NCBI GenBank assembly: GCA_040398075.1
Contig: JBBAUR010000002.1
Coordinates: forward strand, 61,834 to 125,833
Direction: 5' to 3'
DNA length: 64,000 bases
Origin: Bdellovibrionota bacterium
GTDB lineage: Bacteria; Bdellovibrionota_C; UBA2361; OMII01
Shown here: positions 39,524 to 57,084 of the stretch, piece after piece
Numbering within the stretch: position 1 is the first letter of the stretch
How the letters are laid out: every line of letters begins with the position of its first letter
The notes under the pieces: generated by a model
What the model was told of the DNA's origin: nothing
The model's input: the letters and a program-made list of their open reading frames with translations, nothing else
The model's database searches: none
Made by a program: the position numbers and the translations under genes

Positions 39524-40495
39524 TCAGAAAGCACCCATCACGCTGGCGATAATTTGGTAGTCGGCAGCTAACTGAGTGCCTGTCATGTCGTGATACAGTG
39601 GCAACGACACTCCAACATACGTTGAAAACACATCGTTGAATGTGGCGAGTATACGGGGCCCCATGTAGAAGGAGCTCTCCCCTGTATTTGGTACCGTCGA
39701 TCCAGAGAGGTCTGCCTCTCCAGCGAACGTATACGACGAGTCCACGAGAAACACGAAGGTATCCCTTCCGCGCTGAAAGAAAACAAATCCAGGCGCAACG
39801 TGTGTTGATATTTTGTCGCCGAAGCGAAATTCGTTCTCCCCGCTGGTGCGACCGATGTATTGAGCATCGGCGATACCGACGAAGCGGTCATCACGGACGA
39901 ATATGCTTGACCCAACGATCCAGTCGAACGACCCCGAGCCAACGGCACGGTCATACGAATAGATGTTACTGCCACCATTGTTGGTGGTTTGTGATAGGGA
40001 GAAGGAGTTCAGTCGGTCGGCATCGCCGGTGGGAAGCTTTACGCCTGCTCTGATACGCCAGTCAATGGAACCGTACTGATCCGCCTCGGCGTACGGTTGA
40101 AGCGTCATCAAGAGACTCATGTCGCCAAGAGCGGTTTCGCGATCGCTGTCGTACGTGTTGTTTGGGCGTTCGGTATAAGCCTTGGACGTGAAGGGCACGT
40201 TGACATCGATAAAGAGCGGTTCGAGTACTCGCGCTGAGTAGAAAAGATTGAAGTTCGAGTCAGCGACCTTCTCGTCAGGTGCCCCACTCTGCTTGGAGTT
40301 TCCCGTGTAGGCCTCGTGCCTGTAGCGGTAGTTGAACTGAAATGCGGCATGTTGGTCGGCTTCGGGTGTGCAGCCGCTCTGGAGATACGCAGCCACGGCA
40401 CACTCATCGCAATCCTGTGCTTCAGCACGAGCGATGAACGTCAGAGCAGACACGCATGACAGCGCGAACGAGAGGAGCAATGTTGTACGATGCAT
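39524..40495 (-). CDS. Outer-membrane beta-barrel protein with Cys-rich N-terminus
   Basis: Signal peptide (ALTFIARAEAQ), CDEC...C motif, amphipathic strands, C-terminal ...SVMGAF. Confidence 0.5.
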   Translation of the reverse strand: MHRTTLLLSFALSCVSALTFIARAEAQDCDECAVAAYLQSGCTPEADQHAAFQFNYRYRHEAYTGNSKQSGAPDEKVADSNFNLFYSARVLEPLFIDVNVPFTSKAYTERPNNTYDSDRETALGDMSLLMTLQPYAEADQYGSIDWRIRAGVKLPTGDADRLNSFSLSQTTNNGGSNIYSYDRAVGSGSFDWIVGSSIFVRDDRFVGIADAQYIGRTSGENEFRFGDKISTHVAPGFVFFQRGRDTFVFLVDSSYTFAGEADLSGSTVPNTGESSFYMGPRILATFNDVFSTYVGVSLPLYHDMTGTQLAADYQIIASVMGAF

Positions 40496-40506
40496 ACAGG
40501 TACCGG

Positions 40507-41085
40507 CTACGCTAGGGGTTCGATGAGCGCTGGGCGATGAGTGCCCGCTTCCCCTGCGAGTACCATGACCGAATTACACGAGAGCTCTAGACACAGAAGA
40601 TCGCGGGGTCCGAGTTTGATTCGGCGCCGCTCCTCTTCGGTGCGACCTGTGACGATCCTGAGCCAGCACGTCTCCTCTCCGCTCAATCGGCCCTGCTGGC
40701 CGCGAGGCTTATCACGGTAGAGCTTCACCAACGTGTCAGAGTCACTCTCACTTTCACCACTCTGCAAGATTACGTTCTCGTCCAGTGACTCTACGCCGTA
40801 GAGGAATGCTCGAGTGGTCGCCCATAGCCCACCGATAGCGTCGATCGGGAGCATCATGTCGAGGCTCCCCGGAGAGCCGGGCGCCTCTGCCCCGTCTATT
40901 ATCGGAGTGTAGAAAAGCCGGAGACCGTGAGGCTCCGGGATTAGTTGGAGCCGACCGAAGGATTTATTGATGGAAAACGTAATACCGCCGCGGTACATAA
41001 CCTCTACCTTATATTCACAACCCGTGAGCGAAGCACAGCCAACTGTGCGCGCGAAACCTCTGACCGGCCCCGCGTCTCTGAACAA
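40507..41085 (-). CDS. Hypothetical protein (start uncertain; internal ATG at 40968)
   Basis: 192-aa ORF that stops 12 nt before the OM barrel gene. No motif recognised. Confidence 0.35.
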   Translation of the reverse strand: MFRDAGPVRGFARTVGCASLTGCEYKVEVMYRGGITFSINKSFGRLQLIPEPHGLRLFYTPIIDGAEAPGSPGSLDMMLPIDAIGGLWATTRAFLYGVESLDENVILQSGESESDSDTLVKLYRDKPRGQQGRLSGEETCWLRIVTGRTEEERRRIKLGPRDLLCLELSCNSVMVLAGEAGTHRPALIEPLA

Positions 41086-41404
41086 TCCGCTACAAGCGCT
41101 CGAGCACAGATCTCACCCTCGGTTTGGGCGAGTCCCTACAATAATCGCCATGATCCACCTGTGTGCTTCAAAAAAAGCGAGTGCACTACAGCTACTGCCC
41201 TCTAGCGGCAACAACCCATCTCGCCAACCGAACCCCACAGGAGGCCGAACCGATAGCAGCCTCAGCCGGTTACGATAGCGAGAGGCAGCGTTAAAAGCAA
41301 GCTAGCAACTCAAAGCTCTGTCGCCCCGATGATATCGGGAATTGTGCGCGGGAGCTCCTGAGAACTCGTACTAAACCTCTGAAAATACATAGGAAGCAGG
41401 CATA

Positions 41405-43618
41405 CTATTTGCGCGCTTTGAAGGGACCAACCTTCACGCCCCCCTTGGGTGTCGGAGGCTTCTGGGGTGCAGCCTCTGCTGACGATTGACCCCCCTTACG
41501 TGCGCCTTCCGAGCTGTGGCCCGCTTCCCCCTTGGGCTTCGCCGTGGGAGGCGGGGCGGGCGGTTCTGGCGGCGGAGTACTCTTGGGCAGGGAGATAACA
41601 CTCCCGCGCGGCTTAGGGCCGCGTGGAGTGAGTGATATCTTGAACGAGCCGGATGGCGCCTCCGTTGGTTCTCCAGGACCCGACCCGGCTTTCGCCGATT
41701 GAGAGGAGGTCGATGGGGACGCACTCCTCCGTTCGGGCAGCGCTGGTTCTGGGGCTGATGGCTTTGACTTCGGAGCGAACTTTGTGGAGGTCTCCTGTTG
41801 CTCCTGCGATAAGATCTGTTCATCAACCCAATCAGCGAGACCGATCTCGTCCATCTCCAAGCGCTCCGGTTGAACGAGAAACTCCCGTCCTTCCCAAGTT
41901 TCAGGAGTGACCGCGTTGAACCAGAAGGAACGCCCTTTCACTATCTTTCCATTTCCGAGGTCGAACCACGCAAGCCCCTTCTCGGCAGACATCTCGTGTT
42001 TGAGCTCCTCAGCGCTTACGAGATCTTCCTCATCCTCGACGTAGCTCACCGTCTGTGACTCTCCCCCCGAGCGACGTGCATCGAGATCCAGAGAGCCTTT
42101 GAGCAAGGTACTCGTCAAGCCTGTGGTTATACCGGCACCTACAGCCTTCTTGGTAGAAACGATCTTTCCGAACCATTCGGTCATGTCCGCTGCGGTCCGA
42201 TTGTCACCGATACGCATCATGACCTTGAGGTTAACGTTTGCCATGACGCGCTCATAGAAGGATTCGCTCAGGCCCATCGCAGAATCTGTGAGTCCCCCCG
42301 TCGATTGCGCACCGAATAGAAGAGCAAAACGCCCACGACGAGCGAGCTCGAAGAGGTTGGCCCAGGTGGGGCCGAACGTCGAGGAGCCCTCGTCGATGAT
42401 GACGAGGTGCGGGTCCTCGAGGTTGTGTATGCGTGAGGAGGTGATCTCGCCTATCGACACCTCCAGATCCTCGCGGAACACCTTCACCATGCGTGCAGCG
42501 CTCTCGGCTTCTTCGAGACGCGGCAGCATGAAGTAGATGATTTTGCCCCGTAAAATAGCGTCCGTGAGAACGAGGTCGGTGTATTTGGTGCAGAAGATCT
42601 CCCCGGTCTCACTCCCGGCGATGGCGTGAAGTTCGGAGGCTATGCCTCGCAGATTGTCGGTAATACGCGCAGTATCCAAGACTCCCTTTACGCTTCGGTA
42701 GCTGGAAGCGAGGTGCCCAAGCTCTACCATCGCTTGTCGCGCTCCGATTTTATAGAGCATGTTCCGCAGGTGCGGATAGGCGAGCTGAAATGCCGAGAGC
42801 GCAACAGCGATGTCGTGAATGGACCACGCCAACCCGAAGCTCTCCATGGCACGAACCATTCGATAGATAGAATCTGCAGCGAGTCGGTCATAGTGTTTGG
42901 TGGTGCTCTGATCCGAGGTTGGAGGAAGGCCAGCTCGTAAGACCTTACGCGCTTTTACATCCGCGCGCTGATTGGTCATGACGAAGTTGTATGCGTGCAC
43001 ACTGTCGAAGGGATCGACTACGATCAGATCCTCTATGCGTCCCGTGACCATCGCCATGAGGATGATGTGTGCCAGGGTAGCCGAATCACGCTTGGCATCG
43101 ATGAATGTGCAACCACTCGCGCGTCCACGTGCCATCTGTTGAAAGATGAGCGATTCGAGCCACAGTGTCTTACCTACGCCGGTCTTGGCAAATACCGCGC
43201 CGTGAGTGCAGATCTCGTCGTCATCGACCCATAAGGGTGCTCCCGAGTCCAGCTCAAAGCCTACCAGGTACCGATCGATCATCTTCTTGTTCTTGTCACG
43301 CGCGTCCTCGATCGCTCTATGGAAACAGGCGCGATCGGGTGGCATCCCCAGGACTTCTCTTCCTCCGCGCAGGTCGCTCTCCCGTTGGCGCTCGAATTCG
43401 AGCCACTGTTGTCGCGCCATGGTGAGCGCCGTCGAGCCCAAAGCAGCCGCTGGAACCAGGCCCAGCCCGAAGAGGAGCGTCGGATCGGCGTTGGCAAGCA
43501 ACGGCAGAAACGCCGCGCCGAGGGCACCCAGAGACGCCATACCGCTGCGCGCCAACGCACGATTGAGCTCCTCTGCCCGCTGCGCTTGATAATCGATCCT
43601 CTTATAGGTACGAGCCAT
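41405..43618 (-). CDS. Type IV coupling protein (TraD/VirD4/DotL-like ATPase)
   Basis: Two N-terminal TM segments, Walker A FAKTGVGKT, Walker B-like PHLVIIDEGSS. The C-terminal ~150 aa form a Pro/Ser/Lys-rich low-complexity tail. Confidence 0.8.
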   Translation of the reverse strand: MARTYKRIDYQAQRAEELNRALARSGMASLGALGAAFLPLLANADPTLLFGLGLVPAAALGSTALTMARQQWLEFERQRESDLRGGREVLGMPPDRACFHRAIEDARDKNKKMIDRYLVGFELDSGAPLWVDDDEICTHGAVFAKTGVGKTLWLESLIFQQMARGRASGCTFIDAKRDSATLAHIILMAMVTGRIEDLIVVDPFDSVHAYNFVMTNQRADVKARKVLRAGLPPTSDQSTTKHYDRLAADSIYRMVRAMESFGLAWSIHDIAVALSAFQLAYPHLRNMLYKIGARQAMVELGHLASSYRSVKGVLDTARITDNLRGIASELHAIAGSETGEIFCTKYTDLVLTDAILRGKIIYFMLPRLEEAESAARMVKVFREDLEVSIGEITSSRIHNLEDPHLVIIDEGSSTFGPTWANLFELARRGRFALLFGAQSTGGLTDSAMGLSESFYERVMANVNLKVMMRIGDNRTAADMTEWFGKIVSTKKAVGAGITTGLTSTLLKGSLDLDARRSGGESQTVSYVEDEEDLVSAEELKHEMSAEKGLAWFDLGNGKIVKGRSFWFNAVTPETWEGREFLVQPERLEMDEIGLADWVDEQILSQEQQETSTKFAPKSKPSAPEPALPERRSASPSTSSQSAKAGSGPGEPTEAPSGSFKISLTPRGPKPRGSVISLPKSTPPPEPPAPPPTAKPKGEAGHSSEGARKGGQSSAEAAPQKPPTPKGGVKVGPFKARK

Positions 43619-43636: not shown

Positions 43637-45712
43637 TCATGCGGTCAACGGTGCACCTGCGATAGCTGGATCCTCGGGCAGGGTTTCTTTGATGCCCTTT
43701 AGGAGTTTCTCGAAGTCCTCGGTTGTTTCCGCCATCGTTGCGCTATTCACGAACAGGAATCGGCTCGCCCAGTTTCTGCCCCAACGCTCGTGCAGCTTGG
43801 AACCACGAAACGGAACCATGCCCTGTTTACCCAAGAGTCCCAGTGAATTTACCCCGTCGTGCGAGGCATCAGCCTGGAATACAGCGAAGATTATCGAGCT
43901 GTCCGGAACGGTGTAATCGCCGACACGTCGCGCGAGCCAGCCGTACGAGCTGAGCACGATGCGTAGAGCGGACCAATCCTTGACGTCGTTGGGATTCAGT
44001 TGATGAATACGAGCCAAGGTGGCGATCTCCTCCTCGCCTAGCGGGGGAAATACCCTCTCGTACGAGGGGTGCTCCAAGGCATGGTCATCGCCTGAGTCGC
44101 GCGCAAGTTGAGTGATCTTCTGTCGTACGCTCACAACGGCCCCTAGCTGCTCTATGCGACGAATCTCACCGGGTTCGAGTACTTTGCGCAGGAGCGCTAG
44201 CACCCGAGCCAACGGGAGAAAGAGTAGGTTCGCCGGTGTTGCATAGGAACTGCGTGACATCTCCGGAGAGATAGCAACCGAGCTATCGGAGAACTCGCGC
44301 GACCATTTGCGATGAGCATGTCGGACGAGTCCTACGAGCTCTACCTCGTCTCCGACGGCTTCGAGTTCGTGTGGGCAGGCAAGGAGTATCTCACTCCATT
44401 GGCGAAGCACCCAGATATCTTCGGATAGGTCGATCGGCATGCGCACCGGGGCGAAGGAGCTGCTACGCGACCCGTAGATGAGGGCTCGGCGGATACGTTG
44501 TCGGGACGAGAAATCGTAGTCGACCGGATAGCCAACCACAGAATGAAGTACGGCCCGGGCGCTCAACTGAGGAAAGTTTGAACGCTTGATCCAGCGGCCT
44601 CCCTCAAATGAGTGAGCCAGGACCTTTCCGGCTTCGAGCGCCAGGAGCGTCGTTGCTATCTCGCTTGAAGGTATCGAACCGATTAACTGCCGCATCTCTG
44701 GGATCAGGATGCGATGCATAGTGTGCCGCACTCGTTCGGCGTACTCAAATGATGATGCAGCGTGATCACCCGTCGCACGTTCCGGCACCGCGCCCCTGAT
44801 CTCTCCCGCAGCGTAGAGTGCATGCAGAGACAGGACCGACGAGAGAAGGTGCTTGGCGTTGTCACGCAAGGGGTCTCCATCGAAGGCTTTCTGCAGAAGC
44901 TGATCCTCCTCAGGGTATGTCACGTACGGCGCTGTGTCGCTGTTGGCGAGTATGACAGCTACGAGGGTCTCGTTGGTGGTGTTAGCCGCACCGAACTCGG
45001 TGAGTATGCGCCAGAGCTCTGAGGCTCGCGCCTCGGTCGGCGAAGCGAGCTGCGGGCATGCAAGCCCCCTCACCTGCAGATCGGGAGCTCCTCCCTCGGT
45101 TATCCGATCGAGATCGGCGCGCACGCCCGAGTAAAACAGACGACCGTTTCCCATCTGTCCGAGCACGTCCTCGCCTGCGTATGGTTTGAAGCGATTGATG
45201 CCCAGGCATACGGCGATTAAGATTGCAACGATCCACACCCGCAGGGACGCCAGAACCAGGAACAACACGCGCACAGCGCCGGTATGCAGCGCTACGTAGC
45301 TTGCCGAGAAGAATGACATCTCCCCTTCGGCCTCTGAGGCTACTGAAATAGCGCTCTGCGCTAGAACCGCGCTGATGTCGTCGAAGATTTTGGCTTCGGT
45401 GTATGTACCGTGGTTTCCGAGCCACTCCCGCTGTGCCTGAAGGCTGTCGGAGAACTGTTCAGCCCACGGGGCCTTCAGGGTGAGGAGCTGTCGATGAATC
45501 GAAGCCGTGTCGAGATCCGCGCCACTGTAGAGGTGAAGGGTGTACAGCACGAAAAGACCGAACGCAACAAGTGCGGTCAACCCGCCAATTAGCCTCAGCG
45601 CGACGCGAGCATAGTTCCGGCGTCCTGAGGATCGCAGGAAATCGAGATCTTTATCTTTTGGATTCGGGAGTCCCTCTACCGCCACGTTCCCTCTGGTAAC
45701 CTGGACACACAA
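43637..45712 (-). CDS. Large membrane-anchored protein of unknown function, co-transcribed upstream of the coupling protein
   Basis: 691-aa ORF with a TTG or GTG start (no early ATG). Three hydrophobic segments lie in the first ~170 aa, followed by a ~500-aa soluble region. The stop is 18 nt before the T4CP start. Confidence 0.55.
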   Translation of the reverse strand: MCVQVTRGNVAVEGLPNPKDKDLDFLRSSGRRNYARVALRLIGGLTALVAFGLFVLYTLHLYSGADLDTASIHRQLLTLKAPWAEQFSDSLQAQREWLGNHGTYTEAKIFDDISAVLAQSAISVASEAEGEMSFFSASYVALHTGAVRVLFLVLASLRVWIVAILIAVCLGINRFKPYAGEDVLGQMGNGRLFYSGVRADLDRITEGGAPDLQVRGLACPQLASPTEARASELWRILTEFGAANTTNETLVAVILANSDTAPYVTYPEEDQLLQKAFDGDPLRDNAKHLLSSVLSLHALYAAGEIRGAVPERATGDHAASSFEYAERVRHTMHRILIPEMRQLIGSIPSSEIATTLLALEAGKVLAHSFEGGRWIKRSNFPQLSARAVLHSVVGYPVDYDFSSRQRIRRALIYGSRSSSFAPVRMPIDLSEDIWVLRQWSEILLACPHELEAVGDEVELVGLVRHAHRKWSREFSDSSVAISPEMSRSSYATPANLLFLPLARVLALLRKVLEPGEIRRIEQLGAVVSVRQKITQLARDSGDDHALEHPSYERVFPPLGEEEIATLARIHQLNPNDVKDWSALRIVLSSYGWLARRVGDYTVPDSSIIFAVFQADASHDGVNSLGLLGKQGMVPFRGSKLHERWGRNWASRFLFVNSATMAETTEDFEKLLKGIKETLPEDPAIAGAPLTA

Positions 45713-46685
45713 CCTACTGTGTACGCTTGAACGTACCTCACAAGACTAGGTTTCAAACAGATCAAGATCAAGGTCACAAACCTCGAGCTCCGAATTCCTC
45801 TAGCCTCTGGGAGAGTCTACTGCTTTTTGTCCCAGCCGTACTTTGCGCCATCCCCGTGTGCCCGGTAGGTTGGCTGGACACCCCCCCGATACAATACAAT
45901 ATGTCGGCACTCTGGAGCTTGTATGTTACTGAAATAGCTCTTTTCGTGCGCCCCGATGCGCTTAAAAAGCTGCGGAATGTTCTTCTGCTGCGAAATCCGA
46001 TCTTCGGCCAGCACTAAACCCCCGCATTTATCGCTACGAAGGAATTTATCCGAAGGCTGTACGAAACAAGTATGAAAGGTCGTAAATTCAATTATCTATA
46101 CAAGATTTTACAGCACTTGGCTATTGCCGGTTTTATCCTTGTAGTAATCGAGCTTTACAGACTGGGTGTCGCTAATCTGCACCTGGGTTCCTCTCGGAAA
46201 ACTGGCCATTAGGCGGATCGGTTCAGCGATCCCGGTCGCTTTCCGGAGGCAGTGGGTTTGTCCGGTATCAAGCTGATCGGAAGCTCCGTTTGTCGCCGAA
46301 GCGCTCTATCCAGATGTGTCTGTGGTCGCGGCGTTAGCCATACGAGAATCCCTTAAATCCTCTAATAGTAGCCTACTTGAAGAATATGCTCGCAGGCCTC
46401 CTGCAGGATGCTTAATCAGGCCTTTTGCGCGAGGCGCCCGGGTGTATGGTCTCAAATCCGGGTGCCTCGCGCGGTAGTTAGGACACGTTTCGGTGAGTTC
46501 GTTTCATATCATTGGTGAACGTTTGGTTGTGCCTTCCTGTAATGAAGGGCTTAGCAAGAACTAGGTGGGTGAACCGAACATTTCCTGTAGCGGGCAGTCG
46601 GCATATCCAGACCAGTATGGAGTGCATGTGCCGGAGGCTCGAGCACTGGAAGGGAGATTGAAGGGCGATTTTTGAGGGGTATGCG

Positions 46686-47036
46686 ATGAAGGTACGGTAT
46701 ATCGCACTGATAGCAGTGATGTCCGCTCTGAGTACCAGAGCAAGCGTAGCCGATGTGCAGAGGGTAAGTATCGGCCAGGCGAGCCAAGAGCAAGCAGCAG
46801 AGGCAGTTGCTCACTACGCCCGCTCGCGGGCCTTGTTGATAGCGGCGCTCAGCGAGTTCGACCAAGCTCGTAAGGTCGCGCGACCCGATGAGCTCATCGA
46901 TCCTGTAAAGTGGCGCAACACCTTGATTGACCGGGCAGAGGACCTCGAGCGGGTGCTCGACCCGCAGCCGCGGGCCACCAAGGGCGGGATCAGGTTCTCC
47001 CCCGACCCTCGGCTCATGCCTGACGCACGTAAGTAA
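46686..47036 (+). CDS. Small secreted helical protein, first gene of the tra-like operon
   Basis: Signal peptide MKVRYIALIAVMSALSTRASVA. 116 aa. Confidence 0.45.
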   Translation: MKVRYIALIAVMSALSTRASVADVQRVSIGQASQEQAAEAVAHYARSRALLIAALSEFDQARKVARPDELIDPVKWRNTLIDRAEDLERVLDPQPRATKGGIRFSPDPRLMPDARK

Positions 47037-50245: not shown

Positions 50246-50264
50246 GTGTTTGGAGGTTGTTAGT

Positions 50265-50711
50265 ATGAGATCTCTCAAGTTCGCAGTTATCCCGGTATTC
50301 GCCCTGCTCTGCACGGGCTGCTCATCACTGGGACGGGTCCTCAACCCGTTCTACGACAGTCCAACTGAGGTAGCTTATTTCGGGGAGAAGAACGACCGTG
50401 CCCTCAACGATTCGGGTGGAGGAAAAGGTGCTCGTGCCCGGGAGGCGCTCGAGGCATTCAACACCTACCAGCGTGCGCTCGCTCCGCAGCCGAACAATCC
50501 GGTCATAATGCCCGCTGTTGTTCGATTGATGTGGGTCCCTGACCACCTCAATTCGCACGGTGACCTTGTGCCGGCTCACTACTACTACCTCAAGGTAAAG
50601 AAGGACGAGTGGGCTGTCACCGACGCATTCGAGCTCGAGTCGCAGCTCAGTGGAGGGGCTAGCGGCGGTGGTTCTGCGGTCGGATACGTCAATCCGGAGG
50701 ACATCCGATGA
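50265..50711 (+). CDS. TraV-like lipoprotein
   Basis: Lipobox LLCTGC. C-terminal VVRLMWVPDHLNSHGDLVPAHYYYLKVKKDEW resembles the TraV C-terminal motif. GGAGG RBS precedes ATG 50265. Confidence 0.55.
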   Translation: MRSLKFAVIPVFALLCTGCSSLGRVLNPFYDSPTEVAYFGEKNDRALNDSGGGKGARAREALEAFNTYQRALAPQPNNPVIMPAVVRLMWVPDHLNSHGDLVPAHYYYLKVKKDEWAVTDAFELESQLSGGASGGGSAVGYVNPEDIR

Positions 50712-51217
50712 TCCGCGCTGGCAACAGGTGCCTACTAGGTTTGGTAGTCGGGCTCGCCGGATGTGCCGCGGGCCCAAAGGATTACGAACCCTACTCAACT
50801 ACCGATCGAACGCTCTTTATGCCGAGCTTCCGAGCGGCAGCTCCCGAGCCGGTCTATGCACGGACCCGTTGGGTGCACCTTCCCGAGGTGCTCCCGCAAC
50901 GCGAGATGCCGGGCGACGAAAAACGTGAGGGGGGACCGGATACAGGCCCTGCGTTGAGGCCTGTTTTTCAACTAACTCTCAAAAAGGCCAGTCTGGAGGA
51001 AACCGCTAGGGTGCTTGCAGCCATGGCCAGGTACTCGAGTTACACGGACCCTTCGATCGCACAAAATGCATTTTCTATCGAAAATCTAGGAACGATCGAC
51101 GAGCTCGGGCGGACTATAGGAGTGAAGGCGGGAATTCAGGTAGTTATCGACCATGACAACCAGGAGGTGCGCTTTTTAGCACCTGCAGCGGAAACGCCAC
51201 GATTATTTAGTGAGTAA
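50708..51217 (+). CDS. Lipoprotein with N0/secretin-N or TcpQ/PilL-like C-terminal domain (candidate)
   Basis: Lipobox GLAGC. C-terminal FQLTLKKASLEETARVLAAMARYS...VVIDHDNQEVRF. The start overlaps the TraV-like stop (ATGA). Confidence 0.4.
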   Translation: MIRAGNRCLLGLVVGLAGCAAGPKDYEPYSTTDRTLFMPSFRAAAPEPVYARTRWVHLPEVLPQREMPGDEKREGGPDTGPALRPVFQLTLKKASLEETARVLAAMARYSSYTDPSIAQNAFSIENLGTIDELGRTIGVKAGIQVVIDHDNQEVRFLAPAAETPRLFSE

Positions 51218-51222
51218 AGCTC

Positions 51223-53964
51223 ATGAGTATCAATAGGTTAACTCGTAATAGGTTGTTTCAAGACGAGCAGCTTTTCAATAAACTGCTCCCCTTCGCCAAG
51301 TATGAGGAGGAATTGGAGGTCTTCCTGCACACCGATGCCTCGCTCTGGTCGCTCTGGGAGCTGCAGCCGAAATGGATAACCAAGGTTTCTGACGCTGAGG
51401 CGTTCCAGCTCACGGAACGCGTGCAAGAGATGTTGGATTCAATGGAGCACACCTTGTCGGCTCAGTTTTGTTGGGTCACCACCTTCGACGTAGAGGATCT
51501 GCTGCGGGATTGTCTTTCGCGCTATCCGATGTCGGGTCCGGCTGGCTGGATGACGCGTCGCTGGGTTCGGTCAATCCGATTGGCAAGCCAGAGCAGATCG
51601 CTTCACCGTAGGCCGCGTCGGCTCCGTTTGTTTGCATGTTTCCGCTTCGATCCACCGTGGCAGGGCAAGGGCCTCATGCAGCAGGTGGCACGCAGTTTGA
51701 AAATGTTGATGTACGGTGCGGTCGGTATCGGCCGTGAGCAGCGGCACAGTGAGTATCTCGGCTACGTCAACAAGTTCAAGGGGCTCACTGATGGAGCGGC
51801 AGCCAAGTTGGCTGACCTCGGATTCTATCCGCGGCGAATGGATGGCCAGGACCTCATCAATCTTCTCTTCCCAATCCTCAACCGTAGAAGTGTCAAGCCA
51901 GGTAAGTACCGGCGCGGTCGCACCACCGCCATCCCGGTACCCGTCTATGATAGCGATGATCTGCTCGCCAACCAGCTCTCTGAGACTCATGTGGAGCATC
52001 CGCGTGATGGCATCATACGCAAAGATGGGCGTGTTTTTCGCTCCGTATCGATGGTCAAGCCGCCCAAGCAGTGTCTACCGCTGATGATTGCACCACTTCA
52101 GTCGGCTCCGTACGAGAACATCGTGAGTGTTACCTTCTCGAAAGATCCGAAGGAGAAGCAGCTCGAGCGGTTGGATCGCCTGGATGGAACTCTCGGTATG
52201 CGGGAGCGTGCCTGGGGAGGTCGCTCGAACCAGAAGATACTCCATCAGATCTCAGCTATACGATCGGCACGACAGGAGCTCTATAACTCCAAGGAGCAGA
52301 TCGTCAGAGTCGGTGTACACCAGACCTTCATCTGTCAGACGGAGGACGAAGCTGTACGTGCTACCTCCGAGGCAGTAGCCACCTTTCCACAACTCAACGG
52401 CGCCCGCGGTATGGTGCACGAGATATCGGACATGGCTGTGCTCATTAACTCTCTTCCTGGATGCTACGATCCATCCACGGACGGCGCTGGATGGACTACG
52501 GTCATGCAATCCTCCCGTGCTACGCGGCTCTTTCCGCTGTGGGGTAACTGGAAGGGAAGTGACGGGTCGCAGATCCTTCTTCCGAGCCTCTGGAACCGTG
52601 AGTTGGTGGGCTTTGACCTCTACGATTCAAATATCGCGCCGAACGTATTGATTAGCGGAGTATCGGGAGCAGGTAAGAGTTACCTGATGTGCTTCCTAAT
52701 AACGATGTTGAACCGCGGCCATTTTGCAACTCTCTCCGACGGTCGAGTCGTCGAGAGAAACCCGATCACCTTCGTATTTGACAAGGGAATGGTGGGGCAA
52801 CCGTGCGGTTTCGAGAAGATCGCGAAACTCTTCGGCGGTCGGGTCTACGAAGCAACTCCGTCCCGTGCTCCAGCGATGAACTTCCTGGCGCGGCTTGGCG
52901 AGCTGACCCCGGATTCGAGGAACGACGATTACAAAGATCTCATCGACATGTGCGCCGACGTCATCTGTGACATGGCCACCGATGGTAACAACAATCCCGA
53001 CCGTCTCGAGCGTGGTAGCGTCGCAGAATCGCTCTCCGAAGCGCATCGCATCTACCGAAGTGGGCCTATGCGACGAGAATTCATCCTGAGCGATGTGGTG
53101 TCGGTCTTGCGTGCCCCACGCCGTGTGGACGAGACCGAGGATGCAGCACGACGCCGACAACGCATCGCGCTCTTAATCGCCGACTACTACGGAGAGGGAA
53201 CGTATGCGCGATTCTTCGACCGTCCGGGGTCTCTAAAGCTAAAGGAGCGTTTCATCGTATTCGATCTCAAGGCGTTGAGCAGAAACCCGGACCTTCAGCG
53301 CGTGTTCCTGAAGATCGCGATGGTATGGGCGGATACGGTCATGAACGATCCACGTGAGCTCGATACCCGCAAGGTTCTTGTGTTCGATGAGGCCCACGAG
53401 CTGATCGGAAAGACTCAGGTGAACACGATCGAAACTGCGTTCCGGCTGTACCGCAAGCGCAAGGGTATCGTGATTGCAGCCTCTCAATCGGGAGAAGATT
53501 TCTACGTCGGACAGGGTGGTCAAGCGATCGTCCAGAACAGTGCTCACAAGATCTTCTTGCGGCAGGATCCGAACAAGTTCCACCTGACGGCGCAGGCATT
53601 CAATCTCAACCCACAGCAGTCGGATGTTATCATGCGGCTACGCACTGTGAAGGGAGTAGAGTCGCAGTTCTACCTCGTCTCGGATATCGGAGAGGGCGCC
53701 TTGGTCCTACCAGTAGAGCCGGCGTTTTACTGGGTGAGCACCAACAACGGAGACGACAATCAACTCTTCACCGATGCGCTGACTCGGCACAACAACGACT
53801 TCAGCAAGGCACTCGAAGAGGTGGTCGCGGTGGCGCCTTACGGAGCCAAGGATCTGCACGAGCGCTTGATGGGTGGAATGAATCGGGAGGAAACAGGTGG
53901 TGTTGGCGTTACGGGAGCGGTCAACGATATGATGCAGTCTGGCTTTAGGGATTCGTCGTTGTAG
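51223..53964 (+). CDS. TraC/VirB4-family T4SS ATPase
   Basis: 913 aa with Walker A ISGVSGAGKSY, Walker B KVLVFDEAHELI, and AASQSGEDF. Confidence 0.85.
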   Translation: MSINRLTRNRLFQDEQLFNKLLPFAKYEEELEVFLHTDASLWSLWELQPKWITKVSDAEAFQLTERVQEMLDSMEHTLSAQFCWVTTFDVEDLLRDCLSRYPMSGPAGWMTRRWVRSIRLASQSRSLHRRPRRLRLFACFRFDPPWQGKGLMQQVARSLKMLMYGAVGIGREQRHSEYLGYVNKFKGLTDGAAAKLADLGFYPRRMDGQDLINLLFPILNRRSVKPGKYRRGRTTAIPVPVYDSDDLLANQLSETHVEHPRDGIIRKDGRVFRSVSMVKPPKQCLPLMIAPLQSAPYENIVSVTFSKDPKEKQLERLDRLDGTLGMRERAWGGRSNQKILHQISAIRSARQELYNSKEQIVRVGVHQTFICQTEDEAVRATSEAVATFPQLNGARGMVHEISDMAVLINSLPGCYDPSTDGAGWTTVMQSSRATRLFPLWGNWKGSDGSQILLPSLWNRELVGFDLYDSNIAPNVLISGVSGAGKSYLMCFLITMLNRGHFATLSDGRVVERNPITFVFDKGMVGQPCGFEKIAKLFGGRVYEATPSRAPAMNFLARLGELTPDSRNDDYKDLIDMCADVICDMATDGNNNPDRLERGSVAESLSEAHRIYRSGPMRREFILSDVVSVLRAPRRVDETEDAARRRQRIALLIADYYGEGTYARFFDRPGSLKLKERFIVFDLKALSRNPDLQRVFLKIAMVWADTVMNDPRELDTRKVLVFDEAHELIGKTQVNTIETAFRLYRKRKGIVIAASQSGEDFYVGQGGQAIVQNSAHKIFLRQDPNKFHLTAQAFNLNPQQSDVIMRLRTVKGVESQFYLVSDIGEGALVLPVEPAFYWVSTNNGDDNQLFTDALTRHNNDFSKALEEVVAVAPYGAKDLHERLMGGMNREETGGVGVTGAVNDMMQSGFRDSSL

Positions 53965-53975
53965 GAGTACGGTGT

Positions 53976-54260
53976 ATGGCTACTATTGGAAGAATGAGCA
54001 GTCTAGGTGTGGCGCTCCTGATGGTCGTTGGCTTCAGTGCGTGCAGTCGCACGAAGGTCCCCGAGGGGCCTCCAGTCATCGAGTATCAGGTCAGAAATGT
54101 ACCAGGTGTAGTGGAGTACGCATGGGAAGAGCCTATGGTAGACGTGGTAGACGTTCCCCCGGGCCTCGACCCGGAGGGACACTACTATCGTCCAGGGCAT
54201 CAAGAGGTGGTAGAGATCCGGCAGGGTCGGTGGCAGTACTATCGTCGGCCGCAACAGTAA
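53976..54260 (+). CDS. Small lipoprotein
   Basis: Lipobox VVGFSAC, AGGAG RBS, 94 aa. Confidence 0.45.
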   Translation: MATIGRMSSLGVALLMVVGFSACSRTKVPEGPPVIEYQVRNVPGVVEYAWEEPMVDVVDVPPGLDPEGHYYRPGHQEVVEIRQGRWQYYRRPQQ

Positions 54261-54272
54261 GGTAGGCATGGT

Positions 54273-54635
54273 ATGAGTCTCATCAACGTCAGAAATTTTC
54301 TCGCGCCGCTGCGCAATAAGTATCAGATGGGTGCCCTTCTCGTGTTAGCGCTGATCGTGGCGGTAGTACGGGTCATCGGAAGTAGTGAGCCGCCTGCAAA
54401 CCGAGAGAACCTCAAGCTGAACGATGAGATAAAGGGCTTCCTAGCGAGCCAACAGCCGGCCACACAGGTGCAGAAGGGTAACACAGGATCACTACCCAGT
54501 TTGGCAGACCCGTTCAGTGAGGGCCTGCTACCCGATGGCTGGAAGGACGAGGCGAGTAATGACGCGCCGGCTCCTGCACCGTCCAAGAACGACAGGGGGC
54601 TCTCGGACGTAAAGAGATCTTTGGGGCTTGAATGA
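54273..54635 (+). CDS. Small bitopic membrane protein
   Basis: One TM (MGALLVLALIVAVVRVI), 120 aa. Confidence 0.4.
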   Translation: MSLINVRNFLAPLRNKYQMGALLVLALIVAVVRVIGSSEPPANRENLKLNDEIKGFLASQQPATQVQKGNTGSLPSLADPFSEGLLPDGWKDEASNDAPAPAPSKNDRGLSDVKRSLGLE

Positions 54636-54772
54636 GTCTAGGCTACGAGAATCTCGCAAGGGTCGAGATTCGGGGCTGAGGAGAGCTGAAGCAAAGGGAG
54701 CGCTGAAGAGGAGATGGGAGAAGCGCCTATCTCCTGGGTGCTTAGGTTTACAGCGGTAGGTATGAAGCGGTT

Positions 54773-55798
54773 ATGAAGCTGGTGAGTAAAGTCAGTAAGA
54801 ACAAAAGAACAACCCCTCACCTGATCGCAGCTGCGTTGGCGGTAGGGGCACTCCTCGGCACAGCCCAAGCTCAAGCTGAGGCTTCCAAGGTCAATTTCGT
54901 TACTCGCTCGAACAGCTTGTCGAACGATCGTGGCCTGATGGAGGCAGAGCGTGATCTTCTTCATTCGCTCGCCGCACATTCGTTAGAGACCCGTGATGCT
55001 TCCCAGCCCCAGGTGAAGCAGGAATCCGCAGCCCCCAAAGAGCGCACAAAGGGGGACGCAGGGACTCTCGCACACTCCTCAACGAGCGCGAAGTCGCCTG
55101 GCGAGACCACGGCTGCGCGAGCAGGCAGGGGTGTGAAAGCTCCTTCTGCCAAGCAGATCATCGAGGCAAAAGCACCTGACACAGAGCTCGTAGAGAAGGC
55201 ACGCTCGCTGGAGCATAGCAACTCGAAACTGAAGAATGACCTTCAGAGCGCTCGAGATCGCATCGCTGTCTTGGAGCAACAGCTAATCGAGTCTCGCAGT
55301 CAGTTGGCGATTGCAGAGACCGAGGTGAACCGCCTCTCCGGTATCTTGGATTCAAAGACGCGCGCGAGTATGGGCAAATACAATTTTCCGGTGTCCGCTG
55401 TGGCTCCAGCGAAGCCGGTGCCTGCGCACCAGAATACCCGAGCTACTACAGCGCGCGTTGCTCAACCGGTTGTTGACGAGCGACCACCAGCTGCAGATGC
55501 AGATCTACAGGTAGCTACAGTGGCGGTAGACAAAGCCGATCTTCGGCTCGGACCCGGTAAGAATCACTCAGCTCTCATGTCACTTCGACGGGGATCAAGG
55601 TTAATGGTAGAGGCGCGGCAGGGGGAGTGGTACCGTGTGTTTGCGCCGAATGGGGACCGAGCCTGGATAGCAGCATCCCTGGTTAGTTTTGGAGAGGGTG
55701 CATCTACCCTCAACGATGGTAGCTCGGTGCGAGTCAGAGGGTTTACGGCGAGTGCAGAGGAGGAGGCGTTCCGTCGTGTTCACCGGCCGGGTAAGTGA
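54773..55798 (+). CDS. Secreted coiled-coil protein with C-terminal bacterial SH3 domain
   Basis: Signal peptide (..LLGTAQAQA), heptad-like segment (LKNDLQSARDRIAVLEQQLIESRSQLAIAETEVNRL), SH3b-like LRLGPGKNHSALMSLRRGSRLMVEARQGEWYRVFAPNGDRAWIAASLV. Confidence 0.55.
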   Translation: MKLVSKVSKNKRTTPHLIAAALAVGALLGTAQAQAEASKVNFVTRSNSLSNDRGLMEAERDLLHSLAAHSLETRDASQPQVKQESAAPKERTKGDAGTLAHSSTSAKSPGETTAARAGRGVKAPSAKQIIEAKAPDTELVEKARSLEHSNSKLKNDLQSARDRIAVLEQQLIESRSQLAIAETEVNRLSGILDSKTRASMGKYNFPVSAVAPAKPVPAHQNTRATTARVAQPVVDERPPAADADLQVATVAVDKADLRLGPGKNHSALMSLRRGSRLMVEARQGEWYRVFAPNGDRAWIAASLVSFGEGASTLNDGSSVRVRGFTASAEEEAFRRVHRPGK

Positions 55799-56330
55799 AG
55801 CAGCGATCCCTTTTCGCCTGAGGGCGTTGCTAGCGGGTAGCCTGTGTGTCGTTGCTGCCGCGCTCCTCACCCGAGAAGTGCATGCTGTGCCATCCGCATT
55901 GACGCGGGTCGTATCGCGACCAGCGTTCGTATATCCGGTTATGGGACCACGGCTTTCGAGCGATTTCGGCAAGCGCAAGCATCCGAAGTTCAAATCCGTT
56001 CGCCATCATCATGGAGTTGACCTAGCAGCTCCGGAACAGAGTCCGATACGAGCTATAGGTGGTGGTCAGGTGATCTACGCTGACCCATACGCGGGCTATG
56101 GAAACCTGGTAGTGGTCCGTCACGATGATGGGATGACGAGCCACTACGGTCACTGCCGTGCGATTAAGGTCTCGATCGGTCAACGAGTCAAACCGGGACA
56201 GATGATAGCCACTGTCGGTAATACGGGGATATCAACCGGTCCGCACCTACATTTCGAGATCCGCGTTGGCGGGCAACCTCGTGACCCAGAGCACTTCCTA
56301 CCGGGATTGGCCTCAGAGGCAGAAGGATAG
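55776..56330 (+). CDS. M23/LytM-family peptidoglycan endopeptidase
   Basis: HHHGVDLAA (HxxxD) and GPHLHFEI (HxH). GTG 55776 is preceded by GAGGAGGAGG and gives a signal peptide. Overlaps the previous gene by 23 nt. Confidence 0.85.
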   Translation: MFTGRVSEAAIPFRLRALLAGSLCVVAAALLTREVHAVPSALTRVVSRPAFVYPVMGPRLSSDFGKRKHPKFKSVRHHHGVDLAAPEQSPIRAIGGGQVIYADPYAGYGNLVVVRHDDGMTSHYGHCRAIKVSIGQRVKPGQMIATVGNTGISTGPHLHFEIRVGGQPRDPEHFLPGLASEAEG

Positions 56331-56590
56331 ACGCCTCGAGACGGTCGGGTTTTTCCGCTGTGCTGAGAGTACACTGAAACTAGCCTCGAGAGCGGCCCCC
56401 ACAGCATCAGTATAACCTATCGAAAGGACGACAGAAAAAAGGTTCGCGTATGCTAAAACTCGATGCTGAACTCAATTATGCAACATTTCGAAAACAATCT
56501 ATTATAACCATCTATGAAACTGGGACGCGCATGGCGCGTTGAATAAAAGAGAGTCCTCGAATATACAACTGATTCCATTTGGAGATAGTT

Positions 56591-57004
56591 ATGAATAAGC
56601 AGAAAGGTATCGTAGCAAAGTTTAAGAGCGCTCAGCTAAGCCTCTGTCAGCGTGTTGGTGCAATGAGCATCGCACCGACCGAGAAGCAGGCGCGCATCGC
56701 ACTCTTTATTTTAGGAGTAGCGATCCTCTCGATGGGCATGTCGTACGAAGTAATCGCTCAGCCAACAAAGCTCGGAACGACCTACAACGATTCGAAGATT
56801 GCAAACGCCGTGAATGCAATCATGACCTACCTTGAAGGATCGTTTGGAGCGTTGGTGATGGCAGCAGCTGGTATTGGAGCCATCTTGAGTGCTGCGTTCG
56901 GTCAGTACAAAGCAGCGTTGAGCTTGATGGTGGTCGCAGTCGGAGCGTTCATTTTACGCTCTCTCATATCGACCTTCTTCAACGACGCTGGTATCCGCCA
57001 GTAA
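56591..57004 (+). CDS. T4SS pilin-like protein (TraA/TrbC/VirB2-like architecture)
   Basis: Long ~55-aa leader with a hydrophobic core ending ..YEVIA/QP. The mature ~80 aa carry two hydrophobic segments (GALVMAAAGIGAILSAAF; LSLMVVAVGAFILRSLI). Confidence 0.5.
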   Translation: MNKQKGIVAKFKSAQLSLCQRVGAMSIAPTEKQARIALFILGVAILSMGMSYEVIAQPTKLGTTYNDSKIANAVNAIMTYLEGSFGALVMAAAGIGAILSAAFGQYKAALSLMVVAVGAFILRSLISTFFNDAGIRQ

Positions 57005-57046
57005 GTACGAAAGATCGCACCGGATACGGTCGCGGTCGTCGTGGAA

Positions 57047-57084
57047 GCGCCGCTCGGGGAAACCCGGCGGCGCTTTCTTTTTTT
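57047..57084 (+). terminator. Rho-independent terminator after the pilin-like gene
   Basis: gcgccgctcggg-gaaa-cccggcggcgc followed by tttcttttttt. Confidence 0.75.

Follow-up and report, generated by a model that had tools for sequence, protein, structure and literature searches.

Conjugation systems of the F type (MPF_F; F, pED208) canonically lack VirB11. To our knowledge, all studied type IV secretion systems (T4SSs) need a polytopic protein of the VirB6/TraG type, and those known to have been recruited to deliver effectors come from P-type or I-type conjugation systems. The Rickettsiales vir homolog (rvh) T4SS is fixed in the chromosome and inherited vertically throughout its lineage, with canonical parts missing and no relaxase of its own. 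It is a P-type (VirB/D) system with VirB6 paralogues and VirB11 and is thought to translocate effectors. The X-T4SS of the Xanthomonadales, a complete P-type VirB1-11/VirD4 system whose effectors carry recognisable XVIPCD signals, kills rival bacteria by passing toxic effectors into them. The gonococcal genetic island of Neisseria gonorrhoeae encodes an F-like chromosomal T4SS for DNA secretion; it was acquired horizontally and retains all of the F accessory genes, together with partition genes and a MOB_H relaxase. In the Dot/Icm system of Legionella, icmP (dotM) lies upstream of icmO (dotL). T4SS cores can also work without a relaxase, as in Helicobacter ComB, and uptake systems of this type lack a coupling protein. 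The phylum Bdellovibrionota is known for predation. A 2025 review of contact-dependent predation cites the X-T4SS as the only T4SS type. In the searched literature, no description of the locus treated here was found, and no T4SS is discussed for Bdellovibrionota.

The locus lies in a 64-kb stretch of DNA (the window) from an uncultured freshwater member of this phylum. It encodes TraE, TraK, TraB, TraV, a TraC-type VirB4, a VirB2-type pilin, an SH3b/M23 pair and a divergent VirD4-type coupling protein. We read it as a deep-branching F-like T4SS domesticated into a cellular organelle that translocates protein or possibly nucleic acid (probability about 0.55). One part of this reading is highly probable, namely that the system is intact, chromosomally fixed, apparently vertically inherited, of F-type ancestry and common to a whole MAG-only lineage labelled Bdellovibrionota. 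That it acts as a non-conjugative translocator has slightly less than even odds.

Comparison with described systems

With MPF_F systems the locus shares the order E-K-B-V-C, the proteins TraE, TraK, TraB, TraV and a TraC-type VirB4 with the TraC_F_IV N-terminal domain, the lack of VirB11 and, in two relatives, TraX. However, pairwise comparison with pED208 picks up TraB and TraC only, and TraG/VirB6, TraF/H/N/U/W/TrbC, TraI and TraM/Y/J are missing from the locus. Its pilin is of the VirB2/TrbC type and is encoded at the end rather than the start of the operon, an M23/SH3b pair replaces the lytic transglycosylase, and there are extra lipoproteins as well as g691 and g192. Unlike its MPF_F counterparts, the locus is chromosomal and appears to be vertically inherited.

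Like rvh, it is a lineage-wide chromosomal T4SS with parts missing and no relaxase of its own, but it is F-derived and has neither VirB6 paralogues nor VirB11. It resembles the gonococcal genetic island as a chromosomal F-like machine that would be used otherwise than in classical plasmid conjugation; the island's horizontal acquisition, full F set, relaxase and partition genes set the two apart. The likeness to Dot/Icm lies in the coupling protein, whose best match among solved structures is DotL, in a weak DotD-like hint for one lipoprotein and in the position of g691, which is anchored in the membrane and has a large domain outside it, directly upstream of the coupling protein gene as in dotM-dotL. 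In contrast, neither the sequence nor the fold of g691 detectably resembles DotM or any PDB entry, the channel genes are F-type and not I-type (MPF_I), and no other Dot/Icm genes are present; the type IVB core of DotC/D/H/G/F with a DotO-type VirB4 was not found. As in the X-T4SS, a chromosomal T4SS is combined with a coupling protein, but neither effector candidates nor XVIPCD-like signals were identified at the locus.

Gene order and boundaries

The gene order and coordinates of the initial annotation are borne out by the open reading frames (ORFs) and the sequence (Table 1). Component identities are HMM-based, with some scores barely at, or under, the curated cut-offs. In addition to the T4SS proteins, the locus holds conserved lineage-specific partners: g691, g192, g169, g94 and g116.

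Table 1. Features of the T4SS-like locus (positions in the window)
Feature	Position	Strand	Basis or remark
T4SS-like locus	40.5-57.1 kb		chromosomal; uncultured (MAG-only) freshwater Bdellovibrionota lineage
g192, 163-aa cytoplasmic protein	40507..40998	-	true start 40998 = M30 of the ORF
Type IV coupling protein (T4CP), VirD4/TraD/DotL superfamily	41405..43618	-	Walker A/B, SXT_TraD, DotL match
g691 (called as 682 aa), inner-membrane-anchored protein	43637..45685	-	18 bp upstream of the T4CP gene
Divergent intergenic region, ~1 kb	45686..46685		between g691 and g116
g116, small secreted protein, first MPF operon gene	46686..47036	+	signal-peptide-like N-terminus
g131, small membrane protein in TraL/VirB3 position	47124..47519	+	position, size, hydrophobic segments
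TraE, VirB8-class bitopic inner-membrane protein	47550..48263	+	PF05309, 27.7 bits (gathering score 24.8)
TraK, VirB9-class outer-membrane core subunit	48260..49066	+	family-level HMM support
TraB, VirB10-class envelope-spanning subunit	49082..50245	+	TrbI, 55.2 bits (gathering score 35)
TraV lipoprotein, VirB7-class	50250..50711	+	PF09676, 21.4 bits (gathering score 21); lipobox LCTGC
g169, extra lipoprotein	50708..51217	+	lipobox LAGC; conserved C-terminal region of ~70 aa
TraC-type VirB4 ATPase	51223..53964	+	PF11130, PF19044, TIGR02746
g94, small lipoprotein, first ORF after traC	53976..54260	+	ATG frame; lipobox FSAC
g120, bitopic membrane protein	54273..54635	+	found only in the window's own subclade
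Secreted coiled-coil protein, C-terminal SH3b domain	54773..55798	+	SH3_3, 2.1e-9
M23 peptidoglycan endopeptidase, signal/anchor sequence	55776..56330	+	Peptidase_M23, 1.4e-34
VirB2/TrbC-type pilin precursor	56579..57004	+	long leader, two hydrophobic helices; PF04956
Intrinsic terminator, end of operon	57044..57085 (approx.)	+	GAAGCGCCGC...GCGGCGCTTTC, then T run

ATGA overlaps had been described for several junctions; ORF coordinates confirm them, at 4 bp each, at 48260-48263 and 50708-50711. The terminator at the right end is real in the sequence and is kept in close relatives (blastn; L001, L002 and L026). The gene named next to it as a kinase (57354-59678) is at best a putative one, its single supporting match being to Bud32 at E=0.035. 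On the left, pstS had been taken as the boundary. This arrangement is particular to the window genome: g323 (39524-40495) and pstS are not conserved beside the locus, the conserved left end of which is g192. In the divergent intergenic region, which has no Rfam match, conservation among close relatives (blastn) covers about 60 bp beside g691 and about 200 bp in front of g116, with a variable middle; L002 and L026 have insertions of 2-4 kb there, including apparent ABC-transporter gene fragments.

Channel core and VirB4 ATPase

The F-type synteny E-K-B-V-C recognised at the outset is real, with HMM matches to successive ORFs: TraE, TraK, TraB and TraV follow one another upstream of traC, TraK being identifiable at family level only. 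TraE and TraV hold in HMM comparison, both above the gathering score, and homologues of TraE carry the precomputed annotation "TraE (weak)". TraB matches the F-type TraB model NF010289 at E=2.9e-13, and its family HMM finds pED208 TraB at 1.8e-20. By itself, the TraK of the window scores low with TIGR02756 (E=0.016; 14.7 bits, cut-off 124). Within its family, TraK_Ftype is matched by 20 of 23 members (best 5.6e-9), and the Pfam domains TraK_C and TraK_N occur in 10 and 6 of them, respectively. The label "TraL-like" given to g131 was not confirmed: TraL/VirB3 HMMs match 0 of 22 family members at E<=0.05, a PDB search gave no match, and the agreement is one of position, size and the topology of a hydrophobic hairpin. 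The protein has a conserved cytoplasmic motif, FPDEERGVRN...PPGIPAP...QPxWSG.

The VirB4 ATPase (Walker A GVSGAGKS, Walker B VFDEAHE) has the N-terminal domain of the F/G-type (PF11130, 52.6 bits against a gathering score of 28.1). Of all VirB4 models, TIGR02746 (TraC-F-type) fits best, its 194.9 bits lying below the equivalog cut-off of 567. The MPF_G model traC_PFL_4706 reaches no more than 47 bits where the F-type model gives 195, and none of the other ORFs matches the MPF_G gene set (TIGR0374x-0375x); assignment to MPF_G is not supported. TraC is 62-98% identical across 76 genomes, and the full-length family forms one 50%-identity cluster among 1.84 billion cluster representatives. Beyond this cluster the score falls from 1582 to 206 bits, and the next full-length relative is 29% identical. 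Plasmid TraC proteins reach at best about 25% identity to the VirB4 of the locus, those of the F/pED208 type about 24%, and IMG/VR contains no relatives. In the tree, the family forms an isolated, monophyletic clade on a long stem, and this ATPase does not sit in a well-described MPF_F or MPF_G clade.

Pilin, cell-wall module and small envelope proteins

The pilin, whose gene probably has its own promoter, resembles TrbC/VirB2 and not TraA. In the window, its PF04956 score of 21.5 bits is under the gathering score of 27.9; in the family, this domain is matched by 11 of 23 members (best 2.4e-5), and the VirB2 model NF010431 by one (2.6e-5). TraX, the F-specific pilin acetylase, is not encoded in the window but lies directly upstream of the pilin gene in L062 and L074 (109 and 105 bits). 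The claim that F-specific genes are missing holds for TraF/H/N/U/W/TrbC, none of which was found in the window or the 76 related loci, but with TraX the family does include an F-specific accessory.

The SH3b/M23 pair makes up a periplasmic cell-wall module, in which the M23 gene likely starts at the GTG at 55776. In distant relatives, the SH3b protein is 593-675 aa long with a longer coiled coil. The lipoprotein g169, conserved in 72 loci, has no PDB sequence match; DotD matches in just three members of a mixed set (best E=0.037) weakly hint at a possible DotD-like domain. Neither g116, conserved in 59 loci (window protein and family members), nor g94, conserved in 67, has a family match. A GTG ORF at 53972-54265 was considered as the gene after traC and rejected in favour of the overlapping ATG frame of g94, the lipoprotein conserved in at least 57 loci. 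At the position of g120, more distant relatives have a membrane protein with a bPH_2 domain.

Coupling protein, g691 and g192

The T4CP is a membrane-anchored P-loop ATPase of the FtsK/HerA-related coupling protein family, with an N-terminal membrane anchor, the motifs AKTGVGKT (Walker A) and VIIDEG (Walker B), and a long Pro/Ser/Lys-rich C-terminal tail. It scores 53 bits with SXT_TraD, 47 bits with the I-type TrbC (TrbC_conju) and 19.3 bits with TraG-D_C (gathering score 22); all of these are under the curated family cut-offs, so membership is assigned at superfamily level only. The best PDB match is DotL/IcmO (6sz9, E=1.5e-10).

The gene g691 adjoins the T4CP gene in every locus holding both and is probably co-transcribed with it. 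Its product has two to four predicted TM helices in the first ~165 aa, followed by a mainly helical domain of about 500 aa. It has no match in Pfam or NCBIfam, and none is precomputed for the 120 listed of its 170 homologues. A PDB profile search gave no match, and Foldseek of the AF2 model (pLDDT 79.1) against the PDB found nothing below E=0.8. In some relatives, the T4CP/g691 pair sits apart from the MPF operon. The system can therefore be split, which makes scattered components plausible.

The most conserved gene of the block is g192, with identities of 81-91% at TraC identities of about 85-88%. In L033, L062 and L074 it keeps its place beside the MPF operon without T4CP/g691 as neighbours, and in L039 it is found on the other side of this operon. 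The protein matches no sequence family, and among 120 listed of 609 homologues, none is named or has a Pfam match. The AF2 model (pLDDT 79.7, pTM 0.77) consists of two beta-beta-beta-beta-alpha repeats, for which the top Foldseek match is Pur-alpha (3k44, E=1.3e-3, prob 1.0), followed by SsgB and MRP1/2. This moderate match (TM about 0.4-0.5) predicts a PUR/Whirly-like fold, the type found in single-strand nucleic-acid binders; as SsgB illustrates, proteins with this fold can also function in protein-protein interactions. The pairing of a coupling protein with a PUR/Whirly-like protein is equally compatible with transfer of DNA and of protein.

Distribution and selection

The block is present in 76 species-level genomes, all of them MAGs that are labelled Bdellovibrionota or carry older or vaguer names. 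The order g192-T4CP-g691, divergent from g116 to the pilin gene and followed by g774-ispG, is kept in the window's clade and several others. In more distant loci, the T4SS block is kept but its right-hand neighbourhood (g774-ispG) is not. The left flank in one relative (FtsJ, GSDH-PKD, FMN reductase, cysD, cysNC) matches window genes at 29.5-36.3 kb. The GC content of the locus resembles that of its surroundings.

The rate of evolution is lower for TraC and the coupling protein than for IspG. At IspG identities of 78-83%, TraC reaches 85-88%, and the identities of the families co-vary. The dN/dS values are 0.018-0.026 for TraC and 0.014 for the T4CP, compared with 0.034-0.046 for IspG, and range from 0.01 to 0.09 for the core genes. 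Together with the conserved housekeeping flanks and the lack of a tRNA gene or flanking direct repeats in the window or the 76 related loci, these data support a chromosomal, apparently vertically inherited locus rather than an ICE fragment.

Missing components

Relaxase, integrase, VirB6/TraG and TraF/H/N/U/W/TrbC were not found in the locus, the rest of the window or +/-10 kb of the 76 related loci; in the window, the Pfam/NCBIfam scans took in the ORFs of the locus and, outside it, 20 of the larger ones. A tblastn search with pED208 proteins found no TraF, TraH, TraN, TraU, TraW, TrbC or TraG in the window or the 76 loci, and F-specific genes were also absent from the extra ORFs of distant relatives. 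Neither oriT-like repeats nor partition genes were found in the window or around the 76 loci, and the listed g691 homologues (120 of 170) include no relaxase or HD-domain Pfam match. The absence of VirB11, at first considered telling, says nothing, because it is normal for F-type systems. The missing parts could be encoded elsewhere in the genome. The sole recurrent polytopic protein of the conserved block is g691; VirB6/TraG is either located elsewhere or replaced by g691 or another protein, or the machine works differently.

Interpretation

A domesticated conjugation machine is suggested by the lack of relaxase, oriT-type element, integrase and mobile features at the locus, by the housekeeping synteny and by purifying selection stronger than that on IspG. 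In such a machine, TraK, TraB and TraV would build an envelope-spanning channel, and TraC, with TraE and the putative VirB3-like g131, would energise the assembly of a VirB2 pilus or conduit, for which the M23/SH3b pair may open the peptidoglycan. The coupling ATPase, with g691 as a possible partner, would feed a cytoplasmic substrate into the channel. The cargo delivered to other cells would most likely be proteins, or possibly nucleic acid bound by g192. The initial annotation had proposed a reduced, non-conjugative T4SS or a new MPF subtype; its F-type synteny and the parts missing near the locus stand, its VirB11 argument and pstS boundary fall away, and its TraL call is not supported by HMM comparison.

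Less probable, though the strongest of the alternatives, is a working DNA-transfer system, either for conjugation or for release like that of the gonococcal genetic island, with the relaxase, VirB6/TraG and other parts elsewhere in the chromosome. Here single-stranded DNA would be handled by g192, which travels with the MPF operon and whose predicted fold is characteristic of proteins that bind single-stranded nucleic acid, and it would be pumped by the coupling protein, which is present and highly conserved. The separation of T4SS genes between sites in some relatives and the occurrence of TraX are also in line with this. However, neither a relaxase, oriT-like repeats nor partition genes turned up in the window or around the 76 related loci, the listed g691 homologues have no relaxase or HD-domain Pfam match, and fixed synteny with conservation above IspG is unusual for transfer functions.

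It is improbable that the locus encodes a T4SS-type pilus with which the cell would attach to prey or surfaces, or an organelle for DNA uptake like ComB. The pilin gene with its possible own promoter, TraX in relatives, the missing VirB5, VirB6 and VirB11, and the ComB precedent for a relaxase-free core would suit this. In contrast to ComB-type systems, however, the T4CP is here one of the genes under the strongest constraint and is conserved together with g691, and the F-specific proteins for pilus assembly and retraction (TraF/H/W/U/TrbC) were not found in the window or the 76 related loci. Finally, an integrated conjugative element in decay, without its former relaxase, integrase and accessory genes, would explain the gene set, reduced compared with F and devoid of mobility genes, but is effectively refuted by core ORFs that match over their whole length and keep their order in almost every sufficiently long locus, by two 4-bp ATGA overlaps in the window, by conserved housekeeping flanks, by low dN/dS and by a TraC more conserved than IspG.

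Significance

Domestication of an F-type system would represent a further, independent origin of a co-opted T4SS. A reduced parts list (no VirB6/TraG, VirB5, VirB11 or F accessories) under very strong selection bears on the minimal T4SS, that is, the least parts needed to build a conduit and move a substrate. A bolder and rather doubtful version holds that this is a previously unrecognised T4SS class, F-derived, which lost VirB6/TraG and the F pilus accessories, gained g691, g192 and two lipoproteins, and was fixed early as a near-essential organelle that injects prey or host cells with proteins or relaxase-independent nucleic acid. If true, interbacterial attack would be a first for a co-opted F-type system, and a T4SS would be working without a VirB6-type subunit. 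With g691 and g192, the locus offers concrete candidates for new coupling-complex or substrate-handling functions, and it may serve as a lifestyle marker for an abundant, uncultured freshwater lineage of Bdellovibrionota.

Gene content of the locus

In an uncultured lineage of Bdellovibrionota, the T4SS-like locus is a fixed part of the chromosome and represents a new version of the F-type system, reduced in its parts and branching deeply. ORF listing and translation show two divergent gene sets: a minus-strand set with the VirD4-type coupling protein (T4CP) and two proteins lacking a family name, g192 and g691, and a plus-strand set, the MPF operon, from 46686 to 57004. The initial annotation had described this arrangement correctly apart from minor points, as confirmed by ORF listing, HMM scans and comparison with relatives.

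Features of the locus and its surroundings, with HMM support. Coordinates refer to the window unless a related locus is named.
Feature	Coordinates or position	Strand	Description	Support
ORF of 407 aa	22890-24113	plus	collagen-like triple-helix repeat	PF01391, E=1.7e-5, below gathering score
Left-edge genes	36430-40495		porin O/P, pstS, g323	
g192	true start 40998	minus	163 aa	
T4CP	41405-43618	minus	737 aa	SXT_TraD 53 bits; I-type TrbC 47 bits; top PDB match DotL, E=1.5e-10
g691	43637-45685	minus	called as 682 aa	
Divergent intergenic region	45686-46685			
g116	start 46686; first plus-strand gene	plus	secreted	
g131	after g116, before TraE	plus	small membrane protein	
TraE	after g131	plus		PF05309, 27.7 bits (gathering score 24.8)
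TraK	after TraE	plus		
TraB	after TraK	plus		TrbI, 55.2 bits; F-type TraB, E=2.9e-13
TraV	after TraB	plus		PF09676, 21.4 bits (gathering score 21)
g169	between TraV and VirB4	plus	lipoprotein	
VirB4 (TraC)	after g169	plus	913 aa	PF11130 and PF19044; TIGR02746 (TraC-F-type), 194.9 bits
g94	ATG frame 53976-54260, after VirB4	plus	lipoprotein	
GTG ORF	53972-54265	plus	97 aa, Arg/Gly-rich; spurious	
g120	after g94	plus		
SH3b protein	after g120	plus	coiled coil	E=2.1e-9
M23 peptidase	after SH3b	plus		E=1.4e-34
Pilin	after M23	plus		TrbC/VirB2, 21.5 bits, under gathering score
Intrinsic terminator	~57044-57085		clear; closes the plus-strand set	
g774	57354-59678	minus	774 aa; convergent with pilin gene	
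Insertion-bearing intergenic region, L002	1443-5462			
Insertion-bearing intergenic region, L026	3277-5456			
Tandem 7-10-TM proteins, L054	17311-20369	minus		

The TraK candidate of the window is weak when scanned alone; members of its family from other genomes, scanned singly, match TraK_Ftype in 20 of 23 cases (best 5.6e-9), TraK_C in 10 and TraK_N in 6. TrbC/VirB2 is matched by 11 of the 23 pilin family members. The small membrane protein g131, initially described as TraL-like, gave no TraL or VirB3 HMM match in any member scanned, and this label is a matter of position and topology only.

The spurious GTG ORF overlaps the lipoprotein gene g94 in another frame, and its tblastn matches in 10 loci arise solely because of this overlap, a gene-calling trap. 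Residues ~600-737 of the T4CP form a long, low-complexity Pro/Ser/Lys-rich C-terminal tail. In distant relatives, whose matches span only ~610 residues, the alignment apparently stops short of this tail, which may serve docking in a lineage-specific way or be just a disordered linker.

Position among type IV secretion systems

For the window VirB4, TIGR02746 is the top VirB4 model, yet its score lies far under the cut-off of 567; the MPF_G model gives 47 bits and the P-type models 17-19 bits. In a search of 1.84 billion cluster representatives (50% identity), a single one (1582 bits) stands for the entire full-length family, and the next full-length protein reaches 206 bits at 29% identity. 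These next relatives are sub-threshold TraC-F-type proteins (265-395 bits). In a rough neighbour-joining tree, the VirB4 family is monophyletic, with a stem (0.27) longer than its internal depth (0.17). The best TraC matches among 72,556 plasmids are ~24-25% identical and of partial length, and IMG/VR holds no VirB4 relatives. Gene content and gene order thus define an F-like system, but one that the VirB4 comparisons, including the rough neighbour-joining tree, place on a deep, isolated branch.

The full-text literature searched on Bdellovibrionota or Bdellovibrio with T4SS, VirB4, TraC or conjugation yielded no description of such a system, which is not proof of novelty. A 2025 review on contact-dependent predation has "type IV secretion" only in references to Xanthomonadales-type systems, and the sole matching Black Sea paper is about Patescibacteria.

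Distribution, synteny and selection

VirB4 relatives (62-98% identity) occur in 76 species-level genomes, all of them MAGs labelled Bdellovibrionota, Bdellovibrionales, Oligoflexia or older names, many from lakes and rivers. According to tblastn with every window protein, the core order is nearly constant: g192-T4CP-g691, diverging from g116-g131-TraE-TraK-TraB-TraV-g169-TraC-g94-...-SH3b-M23-pilin. In several clades, the window's among them, g774 and ispG come after the pilin gene. Past g192, one relative carries genes for a 434-aa unknown protein, FtsJ/TlyA, GSDH-PKD, FMN reductase, cysD and cysNC, of which GSDH-PKD to cysNC are the window genes at 29.5-36.3 kb. These matching left-flank genes, together with the conserved order, imply that chromosomal synteny is conserved to either side of the block; the porin O/P, pstS and g323 on the left are merely gained in the window.

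In the window, this left edge between GSDH-PKD and g192 holds a phosphate-selective porin O/P, pstS and g323, a secreted 323-aa protein without family match that ends in Phe and is possibly an outer-membrane beta-barrel. At the same site, the relative has the FtsJ/TlyA methyltransferase and the 434-aa protein. The difference suggests that a Pho-type module was exchanged in one lineage at the left edge of the T4SS block.

From genome to genome, the identities of all families rise and fall together: where IspG is 78-83% identical, TraC reaches 85-88% and g192 87-91%. The dN/dS ratios against the three closest genomes (Nei-Gojobori), approximate since dS is near saturation, are 0.018-0.026 for TraC, 0.014 for the T4CP, ~0.03 for TraE and 0.034-0.046 for IspG. 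Conservation, synteny and dN/dS together mark the system as core cellular machinery and speak against both a mobile element and a remnant in decay.

Missing components

Outside the locus, 20 of the larger window ORFs were scanned with Pfam, and no relaxase, integrase or further tra gene was among them. These ORFs are housekeeping genes (histidine kinases, phosphodiesterases, glycosyltransferases, cysNC, cysD, FMN reductase, a GSDH-PKD protein, porin O/P, pstS and ispG). No tRNA was found in the window, no direct repeats flank the locus, no compositional break occurs at it, and an Rfam scan of the locus gave no match. When all Tra proteins of the F-type plasmid pED208 were compared by tblastn with the window and the 76 related loci, only TraB and TraC were detected. 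The same two proteins alone emerged from hmmsearch and hhalign against single pED208 Tra sequences, comparisons that are uninformative rather than negative evidence; the remaining "matches" were lipoprotein signal peptides. The sole recurrent membrane protein of the conserved block with several predicted TM helices (2-4) is g691. The Pfam scans, tblastn and TM-helix survey therefore bear out that, throughout the family, the locus lacks VirB6/TraG, TraF/H/N/U/W and a relaxase, and also TrbC. VirB11, likewise listed as missing at first, is indeed absent, but F-type systems normally lack it, so its absence carries no weight.

Proteins without family assignment

Profile searches of the PDB with g691, g192, TraK, g131 and g169 gave nothing significant. 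The membrane protein g691 has no Pfam or NCBIfam match, and its homologues have no precomputed Pfam match among the 120 matches listed. Its AlphaFold model, of good quality (pLDDT 79.1), combines an N-terminal membrane hairpin region with a ~500-aa helical domain, and Foldseek against the PDB returned nothing below E=0.8 (YhaM, rank 2, probability 0.41, not significant). Homology to DotM or to TraG_N/VirB6 was rejected on the lack of Pfam and Foldseek matches, as was a MOB_H/HD-domain relaxase, the alignment consensus also showing no conserved HD dyad. Positive charges on both sides suggest that the large domain is cytoplasmic. The gene is kept 18 bp upstream of the T4CP gene, and this fixed position suggests a coupling-complex partner. 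Such a role would be analogous to that of DotM, to which no homology was found, and is speculative.

The 609 homologues of g192 include 120 listed matches, all unnamed and without Pfam match. Its model (pLDDT 79.7, pTM 0.77) has two beta-sheet-plus-helix repeats and retrieves Pur-alpha first in Foldseek (E=1.3e-3, probability 1.0), then SsgB and the MRP1/2 guide-RNA-binding proteins. The structural comparison recommended initially thus left g691 without a match and, for g192, points to a PUR/Whirly-like fold. Proteins with this fold usually bind single-stranded nucleic acid; SsgB, however, recruits proteins with it, and the fold therefore does not fix the role of g192.

The lipoprotein g169 has a conserved C-terminal region of ~70 aa and no PDB sequence match; a mixed set gave a weak DotD match (three members, E=0.037). 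No matches were obtained for g94 and g116.

Between the T4SS operon and ispG of the window's clade lies g774, also present in L027, L030, L062, L068, L074 and L075 at 24-28% identity. A single TM helix lies near residue 300, and the N-terminal ..LVHGHISLSNI.. resembles the catalytic loop of a kinase, but with the Asp missing. The protein kinase originally placed here was not accepted, the only match being Bud32 (E=0.035), with no Pfam or PDB kinase match. Either g774 regulates the locus as a pseudokinase-type protein, or it may simply lie next to it.

Variation within the family

More distant members have an in-operon bPH_2-domain membrane protein in place of g120, which belongs to the window's subclade, and an SH3b protein with a far longer coiled coil. 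In L062 and L074, a homologue of TraX, the F-pilin acetylase, lies immediately upstream of the pilin (109 and 105 bits), a further F-type trait. The T4CP/g691 pair is not found within 10 kb in L033, L062 and L074, implying that components can be dispersed, and g192 still adjoins the MPF operon there, which ties it functionally to the machine.

The divergent intergenic region is an insertion hot spot in which close relatives hold 2-4 kb, with conservation confined to ~60 bp and ~200 bp beside the two operons. The L002 insertion encodes a 470-aa secreted protein and what resemble pieces of an ABC-transporter ATPase and permease, spread over several frames and apparently pseudogenes. In the most distant clade, five loci (L046, L050, L051, L054, L060) carry, in or just past the operon, tandem paralogous proteins of ~505-520 aa that lack a Pfam match and are predicted to have 7-10 TM helices; in L050 and L054 their genes lie between those for M23 and the pilin. 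The window has no homologue of these proteins, which are most likely unrelated membrane enzymes, although they are the sole large polytopic proteins seen near any operon version.

Proposed function

Which parts are encoded, how conserved they are and where they lie in the genome are matters of observation; a mechanism can be proposed from what their F-type and VirB homologues are known to do. TraK, TraB and TraV would form an outer-membrane core complex, and TraE, TraC and probably g131 an inner-membrane assembly platform. The VirB2-type pilin would be polymerised into a pilus or conduit, with local peptidoglycan remodelling by the M23 and SH3b proteins. The T4CP, perhaps with g691 and g192, would select and energise a cytoplasmic substrate.

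The original interpretation as a reduced, non-conjugative T4SS or a new MPF subtype is partly supported. A serious rival, though an unlikely one, is a DNA-transfer or DNA-release system, which would depend on a relaxase encoded elsewhere. A pilus or uptake organelle is less likely still, given how constrained the T4CP is. A decaying ICE is effectively excluded, and a mobile element of any kind was rejected on conserved synteny, co-varying identities, lack of tRNA and repeats, low dN/dS and absence from IMG/VR. Because no mobility function accompanies the locus and selection on it is housekeeping-like, the favoured function, at a probability of roughly 0.45, is that of a domesticated translocator that acts on other cells.
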